From the sequence record OQ067374.1: 64,000 bases of DNA. One strand, 5' to 3'. Both the position numbers and the translations under genes were made by a program. Below are positions 2,345 to 59,811 of this stretch, piece by piece (the stretch's first letter is position 1; each line of letters opens with the position of its first letter). The notes under the pieces are model-generated. The model worked only from the letters and a program-made list of their open reading frames with translations. It was not told where the DNA came from and made no database searches. The DNA is from Escherichia phage a20.

Positions 2345-4327
2345 ATGTCACTTCTCTCTCCGGGCGTTGAGCTCAAAGAAACTACCGTACAGAGTACTGT
2401 AGTTAATAACTCCACTGGTACTGCTGCCCTGGCTGGAAAATTCCAATGGGGACCTGCATTCCAGATTAAACAAATCACTGATGAAGTTGCATTAGTTGAT
2501 ATGTTTGGTACTCCTAATACGGATACAGCAGATTATTTCATGTCTGCTATGAACTTCCTTCAATATGGTAATGACCTTCGTGTTGTACGCGCAGTTGACC
2601 GTGATACTGCTAAGAACTCATCTCCTGTAGCAGGCAATATTGAATTCACAATCTCTGCTGCTGGTAGTAACTATGCAGTTGGTGATAAAATTATCGTTAA
2701 GTATTTGACCGAAACTGTTGAAGCAGATGGTTATGTCACTTCAGTTGATGTCGATGGTAAAATTCTTAGCATTTATATCCCAACCGGTAAAATTATTGCT
2801 CGTGCAAAAGAAATTAATGAATATCCGGCATTGGGTTCTAACTGGACCGCCGAAGTTGCCAGTTCTTCTTCTGGACTCTCTGGCGTTATTACAATTGGTT
2901 CTATCGTAACCGATTCGGGTATTCTGTTAACTGAAGTTGAAACTTCTGAAGAAGCTATTACTTCTCTAACTTTCCAAGAATCTATTAAAAAATATGGTGT
3001 CCCAGGCGTAGTTGCTCTTTATCCTGGTGAACTTGGCGACCAGCTCGAAATTGAAATCGTATCTAAAGCAGACTATGACAAAGGTGCTTCAGCCCAGTTA
3101 AAAATTTATCCTGATGGTGGTACTCGCGCATCTACTGCTAAAGCAATCTTTGGGTATGGCCCACAAACTGATGACCAATATGCAATTATCGTTCGTCGTA
3201 ACGATGCTGTAGTCCAGAGTGTAGTTCTTTCTACTAAACGCGGTGAACGCGATATTTATGGTAGTAATATCTTTATTGATGATTTCTTTGCTAAAGGCGC
3301 AAGCAATTATATTTTCGCTACTGCACAAGGTTGGCCAAAAGGTTTCTCTGGCGTAATCAAACTGGGCGGTGGCTTATCATCTAATGAAACGGTTGACGCT
3401 GGTGATTTAATGGAAGCTTGGGATTTGTTTGCTGACCGCGAATCTGTTAATGCGCAGTTGTTTATTGCTGGTTCTTGTGCAGGTGAATCTTTAGAAGTTG
3501 CTTCTACAGTTCAGAAACATGTTGTAGCAATTGGTGATTCTCGCCAAGATTGCTTGGTTCTTTGCTCACCGCCACGTGCAACTATAGTCGGTATTCCTGT
3601 TAATCGTGCAGTTGATAATCTGGTTGATTGGCGTACTGCGTCAGGAACTTACACTGATAATAACTTTAATGTAAGTTCTACTTATGCTGCTATTGACGGT
3701 AACTATAAATATCAATATGATAAATATAATGATGTGAATCGTTGGGTTCCATTAGCTGCTGATATTGCCGGTCTTTGTGCTCGCACAGACAATATTTCTC
3801 AGCCTTGGATGTCTCCTGCCGGTTATAACCGTGGACAAATTCTTAACGTTATTAAGCTTGCAATTGAAACTCGTCAACCACAGCGTGATCGTTTGTATCA
3901 GGAAGCTATTAACCCTGTTACTGGTACCGGTGGTGATGGGTATGTTCTGTACGGCGATAAAACTGCCACTTCTGTTCCTTCACCATTTGACCGTATTAAC
4001 GTTCGTCGTTTGTTCAATATGGTTAAAACGAACATTGGTTCAGCATCTAAATATCGTCTGTTTGAATTGAACAACGCATTTACCCGTTCTTCTTTCCGTA
4101 CAGAGACTTCTCAATATCTACAGGGTATTAAAGCTCTTGGTGGTGTATATAACTTTAAAGTTGTTTGTGATACTACCAATAACACTCCAGCAGTTATCGA
4201 CCGTAATGAATTTGTAGCTACTTTCTACTTACAACCTGCCCGCTCGATAAATTATATTACGTTGAACTTTGTAGCAACAGCAACTGGTGCCGATTTCGAC
4301 GAACTGATTGGTGCTGTAGGTGGTTAA
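2345..4327 (+). CDS. 18: contractile tail sheath protein gp18
   Basis: 660 aa (T4 gp18 is about 659); begins MSLLSPGVELKETTV; late promoter TATAAATA upstream. Confidence 0.96.
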   Translation: MSLLSPGVELKETTVQSTVVNNSTGTAALAGKFQWGPAFQIKQITDEVALVDMFGTPNTDTADYFMSAMNFLQYGNDLRVVRAVDRDTAKNSSPVAGNIEFTISAAGSNYAVGDKIIVKYLTETVEADGYVTSVDVDGKILSIYIPTGKIIARAKEINEYPALGSNWTAEVASSSSGLSGVITIGSIVTDSGILLTEVETSEEAITSLTFQESIKKYGVPGVVALYPGELGDQLEIEIVSKADYDKGASAQLKIYPDGGTRASTAKAIFGYGPQTDDQYAIIVRRNDAVVQSVVLSTKRGERDIYGSNIFIDDFFAKGASNYIFATAQGWPKGFSGVIKLGGGLSSNETVDAGDLMEAWDLFADRESVNAQLFIAGSCAGESLEVASTVQKHVVAIGDSRQDCLVLCSPPRATIVGIPVNRAVDNLVDWRTASGTYTDNNFNVSSTYAAIDGNYKYQYDKYNDVNRWVPLAADIAGLCARTDNISQPWMSPAGYNRGQILNVIKLAIETRQPQRDRLYQEAINPVTGTGGDGYVLYGDKTATSVPSPFDRINVRRLFNMVKTNIGSASKYRLFELNNAFTRSSFRTETSQYLQGIKALGGVYNFKVVCDTTNNTPAVIDRNEFVATFYLQPARSINYITLNFVATATGADFDELIGAVGG

Positions 4328-7248: not shown

Positions 7249-7889
7249 TGAATAAACCCGAGTTACTTATTGAAACTTGGGGTCAACCCGGTGAGATTAT
7301 TGATGGTGTTCCAATGTTGGAATCTCATGATGGAAAAGATTCTGGCTTAAAACCAGGGCTTTATATAGAAGGTATTTTTCTTCAGGCAGAGGTTGTTAAC
7401 CGAAATAAACGTTTATATCCTAAACGCGTTTTGGAAAAAGCAGTAAGTGACTATATTAAAGAACAAGTCGCAACCAAACAAGCCCTTGGAGAATTAAACC
7501 ATCCACCTCGCGCAAATGTTGACCCTATGCAAGCCGCTATCATTATTGAAGATATGTGGTGGAAAGGAAACGATGTATATGGACGCGCTAGAATTATTGA
7601 AGGCGACCATGGTCCCGGTGATAAATTAGCTGCTAATATACGAGCTGGTTGGATTCCAGGTGTTTCCTCTCGTGGTCTTGGTTCTTTAACCGACACCAAT
7701 AAAGGGTACCGTATCGTGAACGAAGGATTTAAATTAACCGTCGGCGTAGATGCCGTATGGGGACCTTCTGCTCCAGATGCTTGGGTTACTCCTAAACAAA
7801 TATCAGAATCAGAAAATTCGGTGGAAATCACCAAAAACAGTGCTGATGAAGCATTTAAAGCTCTCGCAGAGAGTTTAAAAGCATTATAA
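7248..7889 (+). CDS. 21: prohead core protease gp21
   Basis: 213 aa (T4 gp21 is 212); synteny. Confidence 0.93.
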   Translation: MNKPELLIETWGQPGEIIDGVPMLESHDGKDSGLKPGLYIEGIFLQAEVVNRNKRLYPKRVLEKAVSDYIKEQVATKQALGELNHPPRANVDPMQAAIIIEDMWWKGNDVYGRARIIEGDHGPGDKLAANIRAGWIPGVSSRGLGSLTDTNKGYRIVNEGFKLTVGVDAVWGPSAPDAWVTPKQISESENSVEITKNSADEAFKALAESLKAL

Positions 7890-8752: not shown

Positions 8753-10321
8753 ATGACTACTATCAAAACTAAAGCTCAGCTCGTAGACAAATGGAAAGAA
8801 CTGCTGGAAGGTGAAGGCCTGCCGGAAATCGCTAATAGCAAGCAGGCTATTATCGCTAAAATCTTCGAAAACCAGGAAAAAGATTTCGAAGTATCCCCTG
8901 AATATAAAGACGAGAAAATCGCTCAGGCATTTGGTTCTTTCTTGACCGAAGCTGAAATTGGTGGTGACCATGGTTATAATGCTCAGAACATCGCAGCAGG
9001 TCAAACCTCTGGTGCAGTAACCCAAATTGGGCCGGCAGTTATGGGTATGGTTCGTCGTGCTATTCCTAATCTGATTGCTTTTGATATTTGTGGTGTTCAG
9101 CCTATGAACAGCCCGACCGGTCAGGTATTTGCTCTCCGTGCAGTATATGGTAAAGACCCTATCGCTGCTGGCGCTAAAGAAGCTTTCCATCCGATGTATG
9201 CCCCAGACGCGATGTTCTCTGGTCAGGGTGCTGCTAAGAAATTCCCAGCTCTGGCTGCTAGCACACAAACCACAGTAGGTGATATCTATACTCACTTCTT
9301 CCAGGAAACTGGTACTGTATATCTGCAAGCTTCTGTTCAAGTAACAATCGATGCCGGTGCGACTGATGCTGATAAATTAGATGCCGAAGTTAAGAAACAA
9401 ATGGAAGCTGGTGCACTGGTAGAAATCGCTGAAGGTATGGCTACTTCTATCGCTGAACTCCAGGAAGGTTTCAACGGTTCTACCGATAACCCATGGAATG
9501 AAATGGGCTTCCGTATCGATAAACAAGTTATCGAAGCTAAATCTCGCCAGCTGAAAGCTGCTTACTCTATCGAATTAGCACAAGACCTCCGTGCAGTACA
9601 CGGTATGGATGCTGATGCTGAACTGAGCGGTATTCTGGCTACAGAAATTATGCTAGAAATCAACCGTGAAGTTGTTGATTGGATTAACTACTCAGCACAG
9701 GTCGGTAAATCTGGTATGACCCTGACTCCGGGTTCTAAAGCTGGTGTATTTGACTTCCAGGACCCGATTGATATCCGTGGTGCTCGTTGGGCCGGTGAAA
9801 GCTTTAAATCTCTGTTGTTCCAGATTGATAAAGAAGCAGTTGAAATTGCTCGTCAAACCGGTCGTGGTGAAGGTAACTTCATTATCGCTTCCCGTAACGT
9901 AGTTAACGTACTGGCTTCAGTTGATACTGGTATTTCTTACGCTGCACAGGGTCTGGCTTCTGGTTTTAATACCGACACTACTAAGTCTGTATTTGCCGGT
10001 GTACTTGGTGGTAAATACCGCGTATACATCGACCAGTATGCTAAACAGGATTACTTCACCGTTGGTTACAAAGGCGCTAACGAAATGGATGCAGGTATTT
10101 ACTATGCTCCTTACGTTGCACTTACCCCACTGCGTGGTTCCGATCCTAAGAACTTCCAGCCGGTAATGGGCTTTAAAACTCGTTACGGTATCGGTGTTAA
10201 CCCGTTTGCTGAAAGTTCCCTGCAGGCTCCAGGTGCTCGCATCCAGTCCGGTATGCCGTCTATCCTGAACAGCCTTGGTAAGAACGCTTACTTTAGACGC
10301 GTCTACGTTAAAGGAATTTAA
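8753..10321 (+). CDS. 23: major capsid protein gp23
   Basis: 522 aa (T4 gp23 is 521); begins MTTIKTKAQLVDKWKELLEGEGLPEIANSKQ; highly expression-biased codon usage; followed by strong terminator. Confidence 0.98.
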   Translation: MTTIKTKAQLVDKWKELLEGEGLPEIANSKQAIIAKIFENQEKDFEVSPEYKDEKIAQAFGSFLTEAEIGGDHGYNAQNIAAGQTSGAVTQIGPAVMGMVRRAIPNLIAFDICGVQPMNSPTGQVFALRAVYGKDPIAAGAKEAFHPMYAPDAMFSGQGAAKKFPALAASTQTTVGDIYTHFFQETGTVYLQASVQVTIDAGATDADKLDAEVKKQMEAGALVEIAEGMATSIAELQEGFNGSTDNPWNEMGFRIDKQVIEAKSRQLKAAYSIELAQDLRAVHGMDADAELSGILATEIMLEINREVVDWINYSAQVGKSGMTLTPGSKAGVFDFQDPIDIRGARWAGESFKSLLFQIDKEAVEIARQTGRGEGNFIIASRNVVNVLASVDTGISYAAQGLASGFNTDTTKSVFAGVLGGKYRVYIDQYAKQDYFTVGYKGANEMDAGIYYAPYVALTPLRGSDPKNFQPVMGFKTRYGIGVNPFAESSLQAPGARIQSGMPSILNSLGKNAYFRRVYVKGI

Positions 10322-10350
10322 TGCTTTAACGTTAAAATACATAACCTTAT

Positions 10351-10380
10351 GGGAGACTTCGGTCTCCCATTTTTGGTTTT
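10351..10380 (+). terminator. intrinsic terminator after gene 23 (GGGAGAC-UUCG-GUCUCCC hairpin plus U-tract)
   Basis: Perfect 7-bp GC-rich stem with UUCG tetraloop, followed by TTTTTGGTTTT. Confidence 0.85.
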
Positions 10381-10648
10381 ATTTCTGTGCAATTTCGATG
10401 TAAGTTTTCAAAATATTTTGCCAATTAGGCATACCTTCTTGGACATATGCCGGAGAACCGTCTTTGTTTTTGAATGATGCAAGTTTATCAGTGGCCCAAT
10501 AACCTTTAGCTCGAGCTTCAGAATCAACTTTCATCCATACTTTGTTGAAGGCATTACCATTAACTTTTGCACCATATTTTTCTACTAACTTAACTGCTTC
10601 AGCTTCCAGAACTTTTAAAGTATCTCGTAAGAAACGTGCTTTAGTCAT
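10379..10648 (-). CDS. hypothetical 89-aa early protein (orphan, antisense between genes 23 and 24)
   Basis: ORF with Shine-Dalgarno GAGGAG 8 nt upstream of ATG and an early-type promoter (GTTTAC, 18 nt, TACTAT) just upstream on minus strand; no family recognised. Confidence 0.55.
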   Translation of the reverse strand: MTKARFLRDTLKVLEAEAVKLVEKYGAKVNGNAFNKVWMKVDSEARAKGYWATDKLASFKNKDGSPAYVQEGMPNWQNILKTYIEIAQK

Positions 10649-10669
10649 TTTGTTTACTCCTCTGTAGTT

Positions 10670-10708
10670 GATAAGTCTATAGTATCACGTACCAAATACG
10701 TTGTAAAC
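10670..10708 (-). promoter_or_regulatory. early-type promoter (GTTTAC -35, TACTAT -10) for the 89-aa orphan gene
   Basis: Minus-strand GTTTAC, 18 nt, TACTAT, then SD and ATG. Confidence 0.55.
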
Positions 10709-10714
10709 AATCTT

Positions 10715-10722
10715 TATAAATA
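10715..10722 (+). promoter_or_regulatory. late promoter (TATAAATA) for gene 24
   Basis: Exact TATAAATA about 28 nt upstream of the gene 24 ATG; back-to-back with a minus-strand early promoter. Confidence 0.7.
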
Positions 10723-10749
10723 ATCTATATCACATAAGGAAAAAATGCA

Positions 10750-12030
10750 ATGAGTAAAATCCAAAAATTATTGCGTGAATCTACAACGTCTACTAGCAAC
10801 TCAATTGGTCGCCCAAATCTCGTTGCTTTGACTCGCGCTACGACTAAATTAATATATTCTGACATTGTAGCAACACAAAGAACTAATCAACCTGTTGCTG
10901 CTTTTTATGGTATCAAATATCTTAACCCAGACAATGAATTTACATTTAAAACTGGTGCTACTTATGCTGGCGAAGTTGGATATGTAGACCGAGAAAAAAT
11001 TACTGAGCTCACAGAAGAATCAAAAGTCACACTAAATAAAGGCGATTTTTTCAAATATAATAATATCGTCTATAAAGTGTTAGAAGATGCACCATTTGCA
11101 GATATTCAAGAAAGTGATCTAGAATTAGCTCTTCAGATTGCGGTCGTTCATTTGAAGGTACGGTTATTTTCAGATGCAGCGGTAACAAGCAAATTTGAAA
11201 GCTCTGGTAGCGAAATTTCTGATGCAAGATTCCAGATTAATAAATGGCAAACTTCAGTCAAATCTCGTAAACTTAAAACTGGCCTCACGGTTGAATTAGC
11301 GCAAGATTTGGAAGCGAATGGATTTGATGCCCCTAACTTCTTAGAAGATTTGCTTGCTACTGAAATGGCTGATGAAATTAATAAAGATATTCTTCAGTCT
11401 TTAATTACTGTATCGAAACGGTATAAAGTTACTGGAATTACTGACACTGGATTTATTGACTTGAGCTATGCATCCGCTCCAGAAGCAGGTCGTTCATTAT
11501 ATCGAATGGTGTGTGAAATGGTATCACACATTCAAAAAGAGACAACTTATACTGCAACGTTTTGTGTAGCCTCAGCTCGTGCAGCTGCTATTCTTGCTGC
11601 TTCTGGTTGGTTAAAACATAAGCCAGAAGATGACAAGTATCTTTCACAAAATGCTTATGGATTCTTGGCAAATGGATTACCTCTTTACTGCGATACCAAC
11701 AGTCCGTTAGATTATGTTGTTGTGGGTGTTGTAGAAAATATCGGCGAAAAAGAAATTGTAGGGTCCATCTTTTATGCTCCATACACTGAAGGAGTAGATT
11801 TAGATGACCCGGAACATGTCGGTGCTTTTAAAGTTGTAGTTGATCCAGAAAGCTTGCAACCGTCTATTGGATTATTGGTTAGATATGCTTTATCAGCAAA
11901 TCCTTACACAGTAGCAAAAGACGAAAAAGAAGCGAGAATAATTGATGGTGGGGACATGGATAAAATGGCAGGACGTTCAGACTTGTCTGTTTTACTCGGT
12001 GTTAAATTGCCTAAAATTATTATAGATTAA
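10750..12030 (+). CDS. 24: capsid vertex protein gp24
   Basis: 426 aa (T4 gp24 is 427); gp23 paralog; late promoter at 10715-10722. Confidence 0.95.
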   Translation: MSKIQKLLRESTTSTSNSIGRPNLVALTRATTKLIYSDIVATQRTNQPVAAFYGIKYLNPDNEFTFKTGATYAGEVGYVDREKITELTEESKVTLNKGDFFKYNNIVYKVLEDAPFADIQESDLELALQIAVVHLKVRLFSDAAVTSKFESSGSEISDARFQINKWQTSVKSRKLKTGLTVELAQDLEANGFDAPNFLEDLLATEMADEINKDILQSLITVSKRYKVTGITDTGFIDLSYASAPEAGRSLYRMVCEMVSHIQKETTYTATFCVASARAAAILAASGWLKHKPEDDKYLSQNAYGFLANGLPLYCDTNSPLDYVVVGVVENIGEKEIVGSIFYAPYTEGVDLDDPEHVGAFKVVVDPESLQPSIGLLVRYALSANPYTVAKDEKEARIIDGGDMDKMAGRSDLSVLLGVKLPKIIID

Positions 12031-13435: not shown

Positions 13436-13632
13436 TTCTTCACCTTTTTATTAATCAGACGTTTACGGTATACAACCTTTTCTTTTGCTTTAAACTTTGA
13501 CCGAGCTGTCTCGGCTTTAGTCCATAGTAATCCAACTTCTTTAGGTTGTAAACCGATTTTTTGAGCAATTTCTACGAATGAAAATCCCGCCTCATGTAAT
13601 GTATAAACTTCAACTTCAGCTCTCATAATCAA
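13432..13632 (-). CDS. hypothetical small basic protein with helix-turn-helix-like segment (24.3-like)
   Basis: 66 aa; segment FSFVEIAQKIGLQPKEVGLLW resembles an HTH; basic C-terminus. Confidence 0.5.
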   Translation of the reverse strand: MIMRAEVEVYTLHEAGFSFVEIAQKIGLQPKEVGLLWTKAETARSKFKAKEKVVYRKRLINKKVKK

Positions 13633-33720: not shown

Positions 33721-33738
33721 GGGAGACCGAAGTCTCCC
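33721..33738 (-). terminator. terminator after the 30.9-like gene
   Basis: Minus-strand GGGAGAC-UUCG-GUCUCCC followed by UUUUG. Confidence 0.7.
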
Positions 33739-51461: not shown

Positions 51462-51479
51462 GGGAGACCGAAGTCTCCC
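51462..51479 (-). terminator. terminator after gene 32
   Basis: Minus-strand GGGAGAC-UUCG-GUCUCCC followed by UUUUG, directly downstream of the gene 32 stop. Confidence 0.75.
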
Positions 51480-51485
51480 AATTTA

Positions 51486-53159: not shown

Positions 53160-53494
53160 AATAAGAAATCTAACGTATTAGTTTTTTCACCACGAGCAAC
53201 TGATGGGCGAAGCATGTTTTCGTCAATTGCTTCGCTTGTAATTTTTTCAACAATTCCTGTAGGAATAAATTTAGCAAATTGTGTTTCTGGAATAGAATTT
53301 TCTTCCAAGAAAGCAGTTGTTGCTTCTAAATAAGACATACCAAATTGTTCAACCATAGATTCGATAATGAATCCGTTTTCTTGGCGGTCAAGCAATTTAG
53401 CGATATCATCTTTATCGTGTTTTACTGCTAATTCTTGTTCAGACAAACCGGCCTCATCAACCGGTTTAATATCACTTAGTGAAAACTGTGTCAT
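53156..53494 (-). CDS. 33: late transcription co-activator gp33
   Basis: 112 aa, same length as T4 gp33; synteny 59-33-dsbA-rnh. Confidence 0.85.
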   Translation of the reverse strand: MTQFSLSDIKPVDEAGLSEQELAVKHDKDDIAKLLDRQENGFIIESMVEQFGMSYLEATTAFLEENSIPETQFAKFIPTGIVEKITSEAIDENMLRPSVARGEKTNTLDFLL

Positions 53495-53759
53495 AAAGCT
53501 CGACTACCTCTTCGTTTTCAGCTTCAAATTGGTCACGAGCGTCTTTATGATAAAGAGCTAACAAACGATTAAACATTTTTCCATCAACGCCAAGCTCTTC
53601 TTTAGCACGAGTACGAATGTCTTTAATCAGTTCATTATAACCAGAAATTTTAAGTTTGTTATCGGAAGCTTCCTTGACTAGTTTAGCCAGTTCTTCACCA
53701 TGCACATCTTGATTAAATTCAACTGCTTCTTTCTTAGCCATGTTTACCTCAGAATTCAT
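53472..53759 (-). CDS. dsbA: double-stranded DNA-binding protein DsbA
   Basis: 95-aa ORF between rnh and 33. Confidence 0.7.
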   Translation of the reverse strand: MNSEVNMAKKEAVEFNQDVHGEELAKLVKEASDNKLKISGYNELIKDIRTRAKEELGVDGKMFNRLLALYHKDARDQFEAENEEVVELYDTVFTK

Positions 53760-59786: not shown

Positions 59787-59810
59787 GGGAGACTTCGGTC
59801 TCCCATTTTT
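59787..59810 (+). terminator. terminator after gene 35
   Basis: GGGAGAC-UUCG-GUCUCCC hairpin followed by ATTTTT. Confidence 0.8.
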
Positions 59811-59811
59811 G

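Follow-up and report, generated by a model that had tools for sequence, protein, structure and literature searches.

In phage T4, the junction between genes 23 and 24 is occupied by segD, which encodes a 223-aa free-standing homing endonuclease of the GIY-YIG type. T4 SegD reportedly does not home, a result attributed to Sokolov et al. 2018. In T4 time-course omics the gene was classed as 'early RNA, middle protein' and the SegD protein was detected (PMC9697503 supplement), and a 2010 review stated that no segD-specific promoter could be found (PMC2988022). For the same junction in RB69, Nolan et al. (2006) predicted an early promoter on the minus strand (Pe:109605, with a score of 29.9 in their early-promoter HMM), together with a late promoter (Pl:109573) and a terminator (PMC1524935, supplementary files).

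The junction analysed here lies in a 64-kb stretch of DNA (the window, meaning the whole stretch that was analysed) from a Mosigvirus, a T4-like coliphage. It resembles the T4 segD locus in slot, orientation, flanking late promoter and terminator hairpin, with a homologous sigma-70-type promoter upstream, but the gene that it carries encodes an unrelated protein of 89 aa without GIY-YIG. Moreover, in 38 genomes a segD-like gene is found downstream of a homologue of the 89-aa ORF, not in its place. The closest counterparts are JS98 orf173, VR7ORF190c and the pair RB69ORF188c and 189c, which belong with the window gene to the same protein family (PHROG 6003) and share its slot, strand and promoter-hairpin frame, although the Dhakavirus and Gaprivervirus alleles are only distantly similar to that of the window (30-38% identity) and the RB69 ORF is broken by indels.

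Phage 'morons' are likewise self-contained units between two conserved genes, missing in close relatives (in the present case RB27) and with relatives in unrelated phages. Classical morons, however, belong to temperate phages and are expressed from the prophage, whereas the 89-aa unit is found in strictly virulent phages and has a T4-type early promoter. Alc is a small early host-directed protein of T-even phages; both Alc and Emp/Gp94 (of phage AV110) share with the 89-aa protein the size class, putative early expression, a location in a variable region and a fold without known relatives, but neither has any sequence or structural similarity to it.

Annotations of more than 200 phage genomes already list the 89-aa gene as hypothetical, and the promoter prediction was published in 2006, so that gene and regulatory frame are on record and the gene is not itself new. 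What is added here is a four-state picture of the 23/24 junction and a link to the mobility of segD. In kind, the gene belongs with other small early accessory genes, likewise uncharacterised, at variable junctions of T-even phages. The reading that we favour, and which we regard as evenly poised between right and wrong, is that it is a genuine non-essential accessory gene whose early product binds a host target, the host-target step being one that we infer.

The gene and its regulatory frame

Positions 10300-10760 of the window are at least 99% identical to 83 deposited phage genomes. Phage AV118 matches the window coordinate for coordinate, and the annotation of the ORFs of genes 23 and 24 was taken from the identical AV118 region. 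Gene 23, encoding the major capsid protein (8753-10321, plus strand), forms the left edge of the slot, and gene 24, encoding the capsid vertex protein (10750-12030, plus strand), forms its right edge. The 428-nt spacer between them holds a single substantial ORF, that of the 89-aa protein, on the minus strand (10379-10648). This ORF begins with ATG, has no in-frame start further upstream and is preceded by the Shine-Dalgarno sequence GAGGAG (10658-10663, minus strand), 8 nt 5' of the ATG, with a GGAG-type motif at the same place in homologous loci. It is a real protein-coding gene under selection, as indicated by dN/dS values of 0.08-0.16 and by homologues in the same slot at the low identities given above; the match to PHROG 6003 and the AlphaFold2 model, both described below, also bear on the assignment.

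Upstream of the gene lies a T4-type early promoter, of the class read with the host sigma-70 factor (10679-10708, minus strand). It consists of a GTTTAC(A) −35 element (GTTTAC at 10708-10703), an 18-nt spacer and a TACTAT −10 element at 10684-10679 that is extended by TG at 10687-10686; the promoter scan scored the same site as TTTACA-17-TACTAT with TG. The site agrees with the T4 early consensus in its GTTTAC −35, its TAnnnT −10, its A/T-rich upstream region and its location on the early-transcribed strand, which in T4-like genomes corresponds to the minus strand of the window.

The 64-kb window contains 14 sites of the form GTTTAC-N16-18-TAnnnT, where shuffled sequences lead one to expect 2.98 ± 1.71; 13 of the 14 lie on the minus strand, and several end in the same GTGATACTAT. 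Furthermore, the junction was aligned for five loci with proteins of no more than 30-70% identity. The late promoter, a GT(T/G)TACA −35 and a TAnTAT −10 were kept in every locus and the TG before the −10 in four of the five, and the AAAATGA start context and the hairpin were also kept, while the coding part had strongly diverged. Given this enrichment, and the retention of the −35 and −10 elements in five diverged loci, the early promoter is more than a chance match. The early promoter predicted for RB69 (Pe:109605) is the orthologous site. No MotA-box middle promoter was seen by eye upstream of the 89-aa ORF. The remaining minus-strand sites of this form, one at 13524-13553 and eleven others, provide a map of candidate early promoters for the 64-kb window, and many of the minus-strand sites share a G(T/A)TACTAT −10 region with TG.

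The gene 24 late promoter, TATAAATA (10715-10722, plus strand), is invariant in all aligned loci and orthologous to Pl:109573 of RB69. It and the early promoter are arranged back-to-back; 6 bp separate it from the −35 element, and it overlaps the upstream A/T-rich region of the early promoter. A first-pass annotation of this DNA had described an 89-aa minus-strand ORF in the 23/24 spacer, served by an early-type promoter and a GAGGAG Shine-Dalgarno sequence, with the early promoter back-to-back with the late promoter of gene 24, and each of these elements is present where it had been placed.

The hairpin ATGGGAGAC-TTCG-GTCTCCCAT (10349-10370, both strands) begins 8 nt past the stop codon of the 89-aa ORF. 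It has nine pairs and, on the plus strand, a cUUCGg loop. The folding energies are −19.0 (plus) and −17.8 (minus) kcal/mol, with z-scores of −5.5 and −5.9, respectively, and the stems of VR7 and T4 show compensatory changes. The terminator scan called the hairpin on the plus strand only; there, followed by a U-tract, it is the terminator of gene 23. Read on the minus strand, where no U-tract follows, the structure forms the 3' end of the 89-aa gene. Since a strong hairpin lacks a U-tract on that strand, termination may be partial, and antisense read-through from the 89-aa gene into gene 23, as proposed in the first-pass annotation, would be possible judging from the sequence. Exact matches of 18-25 nt to the gene 23 terminator hairpin sequence (TGGGAGACTTCGGTCTCCCATTTTT) are found at 59787-59811 (plus), 51462-51480 (minus) and 33721-33738 (minus). 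These three further copies in the window are presumably reused terminators, and the repeats explain the second match to the query in many phage records.

The protein family and its predicted fold

The PHROG 6003 HMM covers the whole of the 89-aa protein, residues 1-89 aligning with profile positions 1-90 of 90 (E 2.1e-45, 153.6 bits). With tblastn the gene was found in 240 phage records, about 120 of them near-identical (Mosigvirus) and 120 below 60% identity, and more than 60 deposited Mosigvirus genomes encode a protein with 100% identity to it. Diverged homologues at 30-38% identity, namely JS98 orf173 (Dhakavirus), VR7ORF190c (Gaprivervirus) and their relatives, lie antisense between genes 23 and 24, as do copies of 61-71% identity on metagenomic T4-like contigs. 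A PHROG 6003 gene occupies this antisense slot in VR7, JS98 and 04086 and in the loci L007, L008, L009 and L020, and a search of IMG/VR returned only the known Dhakavirus and Gaprivervirus types.

Purifying selection is evident in the pairs with unsaturated synonymous sites, the only ones for which dN/dS is quoted: the ratio is 0.14 for JS98/04086, 0.16 for the window and L007, and 0.08 for VR7/JS98. For the window and L009, a pair with saturated synonymous sites, pN is 0.21 against a pS of 0.80.

In the inspected records the gene is annotated as 'hypothetical protein' throughout, except for one 'Phage protein' and two evident mis-annotations. The latter are the automatic names 'NADPH-dependent curcumin reductase CurA' (P0006, JGI) and 'glycosyl hydrolase family 25' (phage EAWsc9, PQ341120.1, 9994-10254), and Pfam and NCBIfam scans of these two family members gave no support for either CurA or GH25.

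A HMMER search of 1.84 billion representative proteins gave nine matches, among which P0021 and P0022 are genuine new distant members. P0023 and P0024, large Big_2 or filamin-type repeat proteins, were rejected as repeat-summed false positives, and P0020 as a chimeric contig end. A final profile search with the widened alignment yielded no further members and no domain fusions, and no bacterial or archaeal relatives were found in 185,579 genomes. A 95-aa dsbA-like ORF elsewhere in the window (53472-53759, minus strand), between rnh-like and gene 33-like genes, was considered as a paralogue and rejected, with a weak HMM match and an hhalign probability of 4%. The first-pass annotation had called the gene an orphan, which it is not: besides the family match and the roughly 240 phage records, there are homologues at the same position in Dhakavirus and Gaprivervirus and more distant ones in two unrelated phage backbones. 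The same annotation had recognised no family and no GIY-YIG or HNH motif, and had judged the protein likely helical. The homology searches are in keeping with the former in that PHROG 6003 is itself uncharacterised, no characterised family was found, and Pfam and NCBIfam gave no match above threshold; the predicted structure, described below, agrees with the latter.

P0021 is encoded on a 35-kb contig, in a block of small genes that all lie on the same strand; the only database matches of this contig are short stretches of Erwinia, Salmonella and other enterobacterial phages. P0022 is encoded just after GpJ-type tail genes on a contig without a close database relative. Both are preceded by a sigma-70-like promoter match, such matches being no commoner than in shuffled sequence, and are closely followed by a hairpin. 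Because these distant homologues sit in non-T4 backbones, the protein appears not to be tied to T4 capsid assembly. A capsid-related factor, acting as an assembly chaperone or as a packaged internal protein, might be suggested by the position of the gene inside the head gene cluster and by a faint match to a PHROG annotated 'internal virion protein' (phrog_8765), but the E-value of that match, 0.09, is not significant. Moreover, the gene lies on the opposite strand with an early and not a late promoter, most Tequatroviruses have the same capsid genes but lack it, and its homologues in non-T4 backbones have no 23/24 capsid-gene context. In the alignment, no N-terminal T4 capsid-targeting motif or LxE cleavage motif is conserved across the alleles. 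We consider a capsid role highly improbable.

The window protein has a mass of 10.1 kDa and a pI of 9.6; the pI ranges from 9.3 to 9.7 across the T4-like members, and family members measure 88-93 aa. AlphaFold2, supplied with a 13-sequence alignment, gave a confident model (pLDDT 88.6, pTM 0.76) that is mostly helical, with three helices (residues 3-25, 31-48 and 76-88) and a β-hairpin (56-60/66-70). Residues M1, K3, F6, G31, N32, N35 and Q70 are invariant across all alleles, including the two most distant, and L14, L21, N30, A45 and S57 are nearly so. Together, the conserved residues constitute a predicted hydrophobic core and a polar cluster near the hairpin and the loop that joins helices 1 and 2.

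Sequence searches with the 89-aa protein were uniformly negative for known domains. There was no Pfam match to GIY-YIG even at E up to 10, and none to HNH in Pfam or NCBIfam, the protein containing no histidine or cysteine; the segD regions of PNJ-9 and T4 have no similarity to the 89-aa gene. NCBIfam gave nothing above threshold. The best Pfam match, DUF4859 (17.9 bits, E 0.0029), was rejected, as it falls below the 22.6-bit gathering threshold and is found with two of 13 family members. PADLOC gave no match for the window protein and isolated matches of E 0.002 or weaker for single family members. The best match of the PDB sequence profile search (E 0.031) was a spurious one of 40 residues. 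By eye, no hydrophobic stretch long enough for a membrane span is present, and an EF-hand reading of the NKDGS turn was discarded, as its glycine and acidic residues are wrongly placed for such a motif and the turn is not the same in the Dhaka alleles.

Likewise, the Foldseek search with the model against the PDB returned nothing at E ≤0.001. In BFVD the sole match at E ≤0.001 was an 88-aa uncharacterised protein, 31% identical, which is taken to be a member of the PHROG 6003-type family. The protein is thus predicted, with confidence, to have a fold without a specific structural neighbour. The low-ranking PDB matches include winged-helix domains (ORC2-C, DnaD-N and 3r0a), and no significant structural superposition on winged-helix or HTH domains was obtained. 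These matches, together with the basic character of all T4-like members and the conserved polar residues K3, N30-G31-N32, N35, S57 and Q70, would be consistent with a small nucleic-acid-binding regulator (such as a modulator of the nucleoid or of transcription) that acts on transcripts or DNA of the phage or the host, in place of a host-protein binder. We regard this as the main variant of the host-binder reading, and as rather unlikely.

Occupancy of the junction and the proposed mobility of segD

The first-pass annotation had placed segD at this junction in T4 and had proposed a comparison of the junction across T4-like genomes. In that comparison segD was found in the T4 slot, on the same strand as the 89-aa gene, and four states of occupancy were distinguished. 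In the empty state, that of most Tequatroviruses (e.g. RB27), an 83-bp junction contains the late promoter and the hairpin only. In the second state, represented by the window, about 120 Mosigviruses, JS98 and VR7, the early promoter is followed by the 89-aa ORF and the hairpin. A third group of 38 records, comprising the Mosigviruses PNJ-9, AV109, AV115, F2, JK45 and the LF82 series and the Dhakaviruses IME08 and 04086, has the early promoter, a Dhaka-type ORF, a segD-like GIY-YIG gene 3 nt downstream of it, and the hairpin. Finally, T4 and about 50 relatives have segD alone, between a homologous promoter (TTTACA-17-TATTAT with TG) and a homologous hairpin. These comparisons show that the 23/24 slot behaves as a cassette site, a natural one that would be useful for studying how homing endonucleases drive exchange.

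At the protein level, the segD-like product of PNJ-9 shares 59% identity with T4 SegD. By blastn, PNJ-9 and the window agree at about 96-97% identity along gene 23 as far as the hairpin, and once more along gene 24. From the hairpin to the start of the ORF, a stretch containing segD and the ORF, PNJ-9 has no nucleotide similarity to the window. Inspection by eye showed that PNJ-9 returns to window-type sequence only within the gene 24 5'UTR. Compared with the Dhakavirus 04086, the ORF of PNJ-9 is 96.6% and its promoter/5'UTR segment 97.1% identical; window-type and Dhaka-type alleles are 31% identical to each other. The foreign patch of promoter, ORF and segD in the Mosigvirus backbone of PNJ-9 suggests homing with co-conversion. 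The simplest reading of these sequences would be that homing-type recombination brought a promoter-ORF-segD module into Mosigviruses from a Dhakavirus-like phage, with the neighbouring ORF allele carried along. The ORF and segD-like gene occupy 1858-2787 of the PNJ-9 locus (L023) and 2501-3442 of the 04086 locus (L004), where they form a single transcription unit, and the segD-like ORF of 04086 is absent from the annotation of its record.

It could be argued from this arrangement that the unit acts in cis or is a mere passenger: the antisense unit would insulate or modulate the 23/24 late region, or the ORF would be a segD landing pad and co-converted flank, with a peptide of little function in either case. 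The frame of promoter and hairpin is indeed kept when the cargo differs, as with T4 segD, the ORF allele stands 3 nt upstream of a segD-like gene in the 38 genomes, and the patch swapped in PNJ-9 includes both allele and promoter. Such a role is nevertheless improbable in our judgement. The amino-acid sequence is under strong purifying selection (dN/dS 0.08-0.16), the ORF is present without an endonuclease in about 120 Mosigvirus records and in JS98, VR7 and others, and homologues are found in unrelated phages outside the 23/24 context. Furthermore, RB27-type phages have neither the promoter nor the ORF, implying that the capsid genes do not need the promoter-ORF unit.

The comparison also bears on the expression of segD itself. 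Directly upstream of T4 segD is the site TTTACA-17-TATTAT with an extended −10 TG (NC_000866, 107253-107281, minus strand; 7254-7282 of locus L005), which has 10 of 12 consensus matches and a position homologous to that of the early promoter in the window. From its sequence and position this site may be the segD promoter that was reported missing in the 2010 review (PMC2988022), and is a plausible candidate for it.

Accessory status and proposed role

In RB69 (NC_004928, 109291-109531; 9292-9532 of locus L010), ORFs 188c (41 aa) and 189c (29 aa) together correspond to the 89-aa gene, broken by a +1 and a −1 indel that adjoin a cluster of mismatches. Either the gene is a genuine pseudogene in RB69 or the 2003 record contains sequencing errors. 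The ORF is also split in the mogra record, and the homologue in the 310Ecol104PP record is truncated. Because the slot is empty in most Tequatroviruses, and because the frame is interrupted in these three records, the gene appears to be non-essential and accessory, with the caveat that the interrupted frames could be sequencing errors.

Early expression of the 89-aa gene is probable, judging from its promoter class and, by analogy, from the early segD RNA of the T4 slot. In the mechanism that we propose, the host-type early promoter, the ribosome-binding site, the 89-aa ORF and the hairpin form a self-contained cassette in the exchangeable 23/24 slot. In line with the class of the promoter, unmodified host RNA polymerase would read the GTTTAC/TACTAT elements in the first minutes of infection, so that transcription of the gene would precede that of the late capsid genes on the opposite strand. 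The predicted product is compact, basic and of 10 kDa. It lacks a catalytic motif, its small size does not suggest an enzyme, and it would most likely act by stoichiometric binding to a target. As the family also occurs in unrelated enterobacterial phages, a host component, whether a takeover target or a defence protein, would be a likelier target than the T4 capsid machinery. A small, compact and basic protein that is selected yet dispensable and horizontally exchanged has, by analogy, the profile typical of early binders of host components.

Several observations weigh against the host-binder reading. A pI of 9.6 equally fits nucleic-acid binding, no specific target is indicated, and both the mode of binding and a host target are conjecture; the promoter-like matches of P0021 and P0022 are no commoner than in shuffles; and the split ORF of RB69 could reflect a sequencing error in the 2003 record and not dispensability. 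A role in host takeover or anti-defence, as suggested in the first-pass annotation, fits the context and is likewise conjectural; neither the homology searches nor the structural ones returned anything in its favour.

A more specific proposal, which we put forward tentatively and think doubtful, is that the protein is an early inhibitor with a new fold, directed against a host defence system or an essential factor, and that window-type and Dhaka-type alleles are functionally distinct and are shuffled between Mosigvirus and Dhakavirus by SegD-driven homing with co-conversion. If this were true, the spread of a counter-defence allele from one genus to another would be the work of a homing endonuclease.

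In the literature we found no Mosigvirus transcriptome and no anti-defence or host-takeover result for the 89-aa gene. The one toxicity screen of Mosigvirus early genes that was found, on AV110, chose its candidates by homology to T4 early proteins (bioRxiv 10.64898/2026.09.14.751387). Since the 89-aa gene has no T4 homologue, it falls outside such a selection, and it represents a well-delimited candidate for Mosigvirus host-takeover or anti-defence screens.
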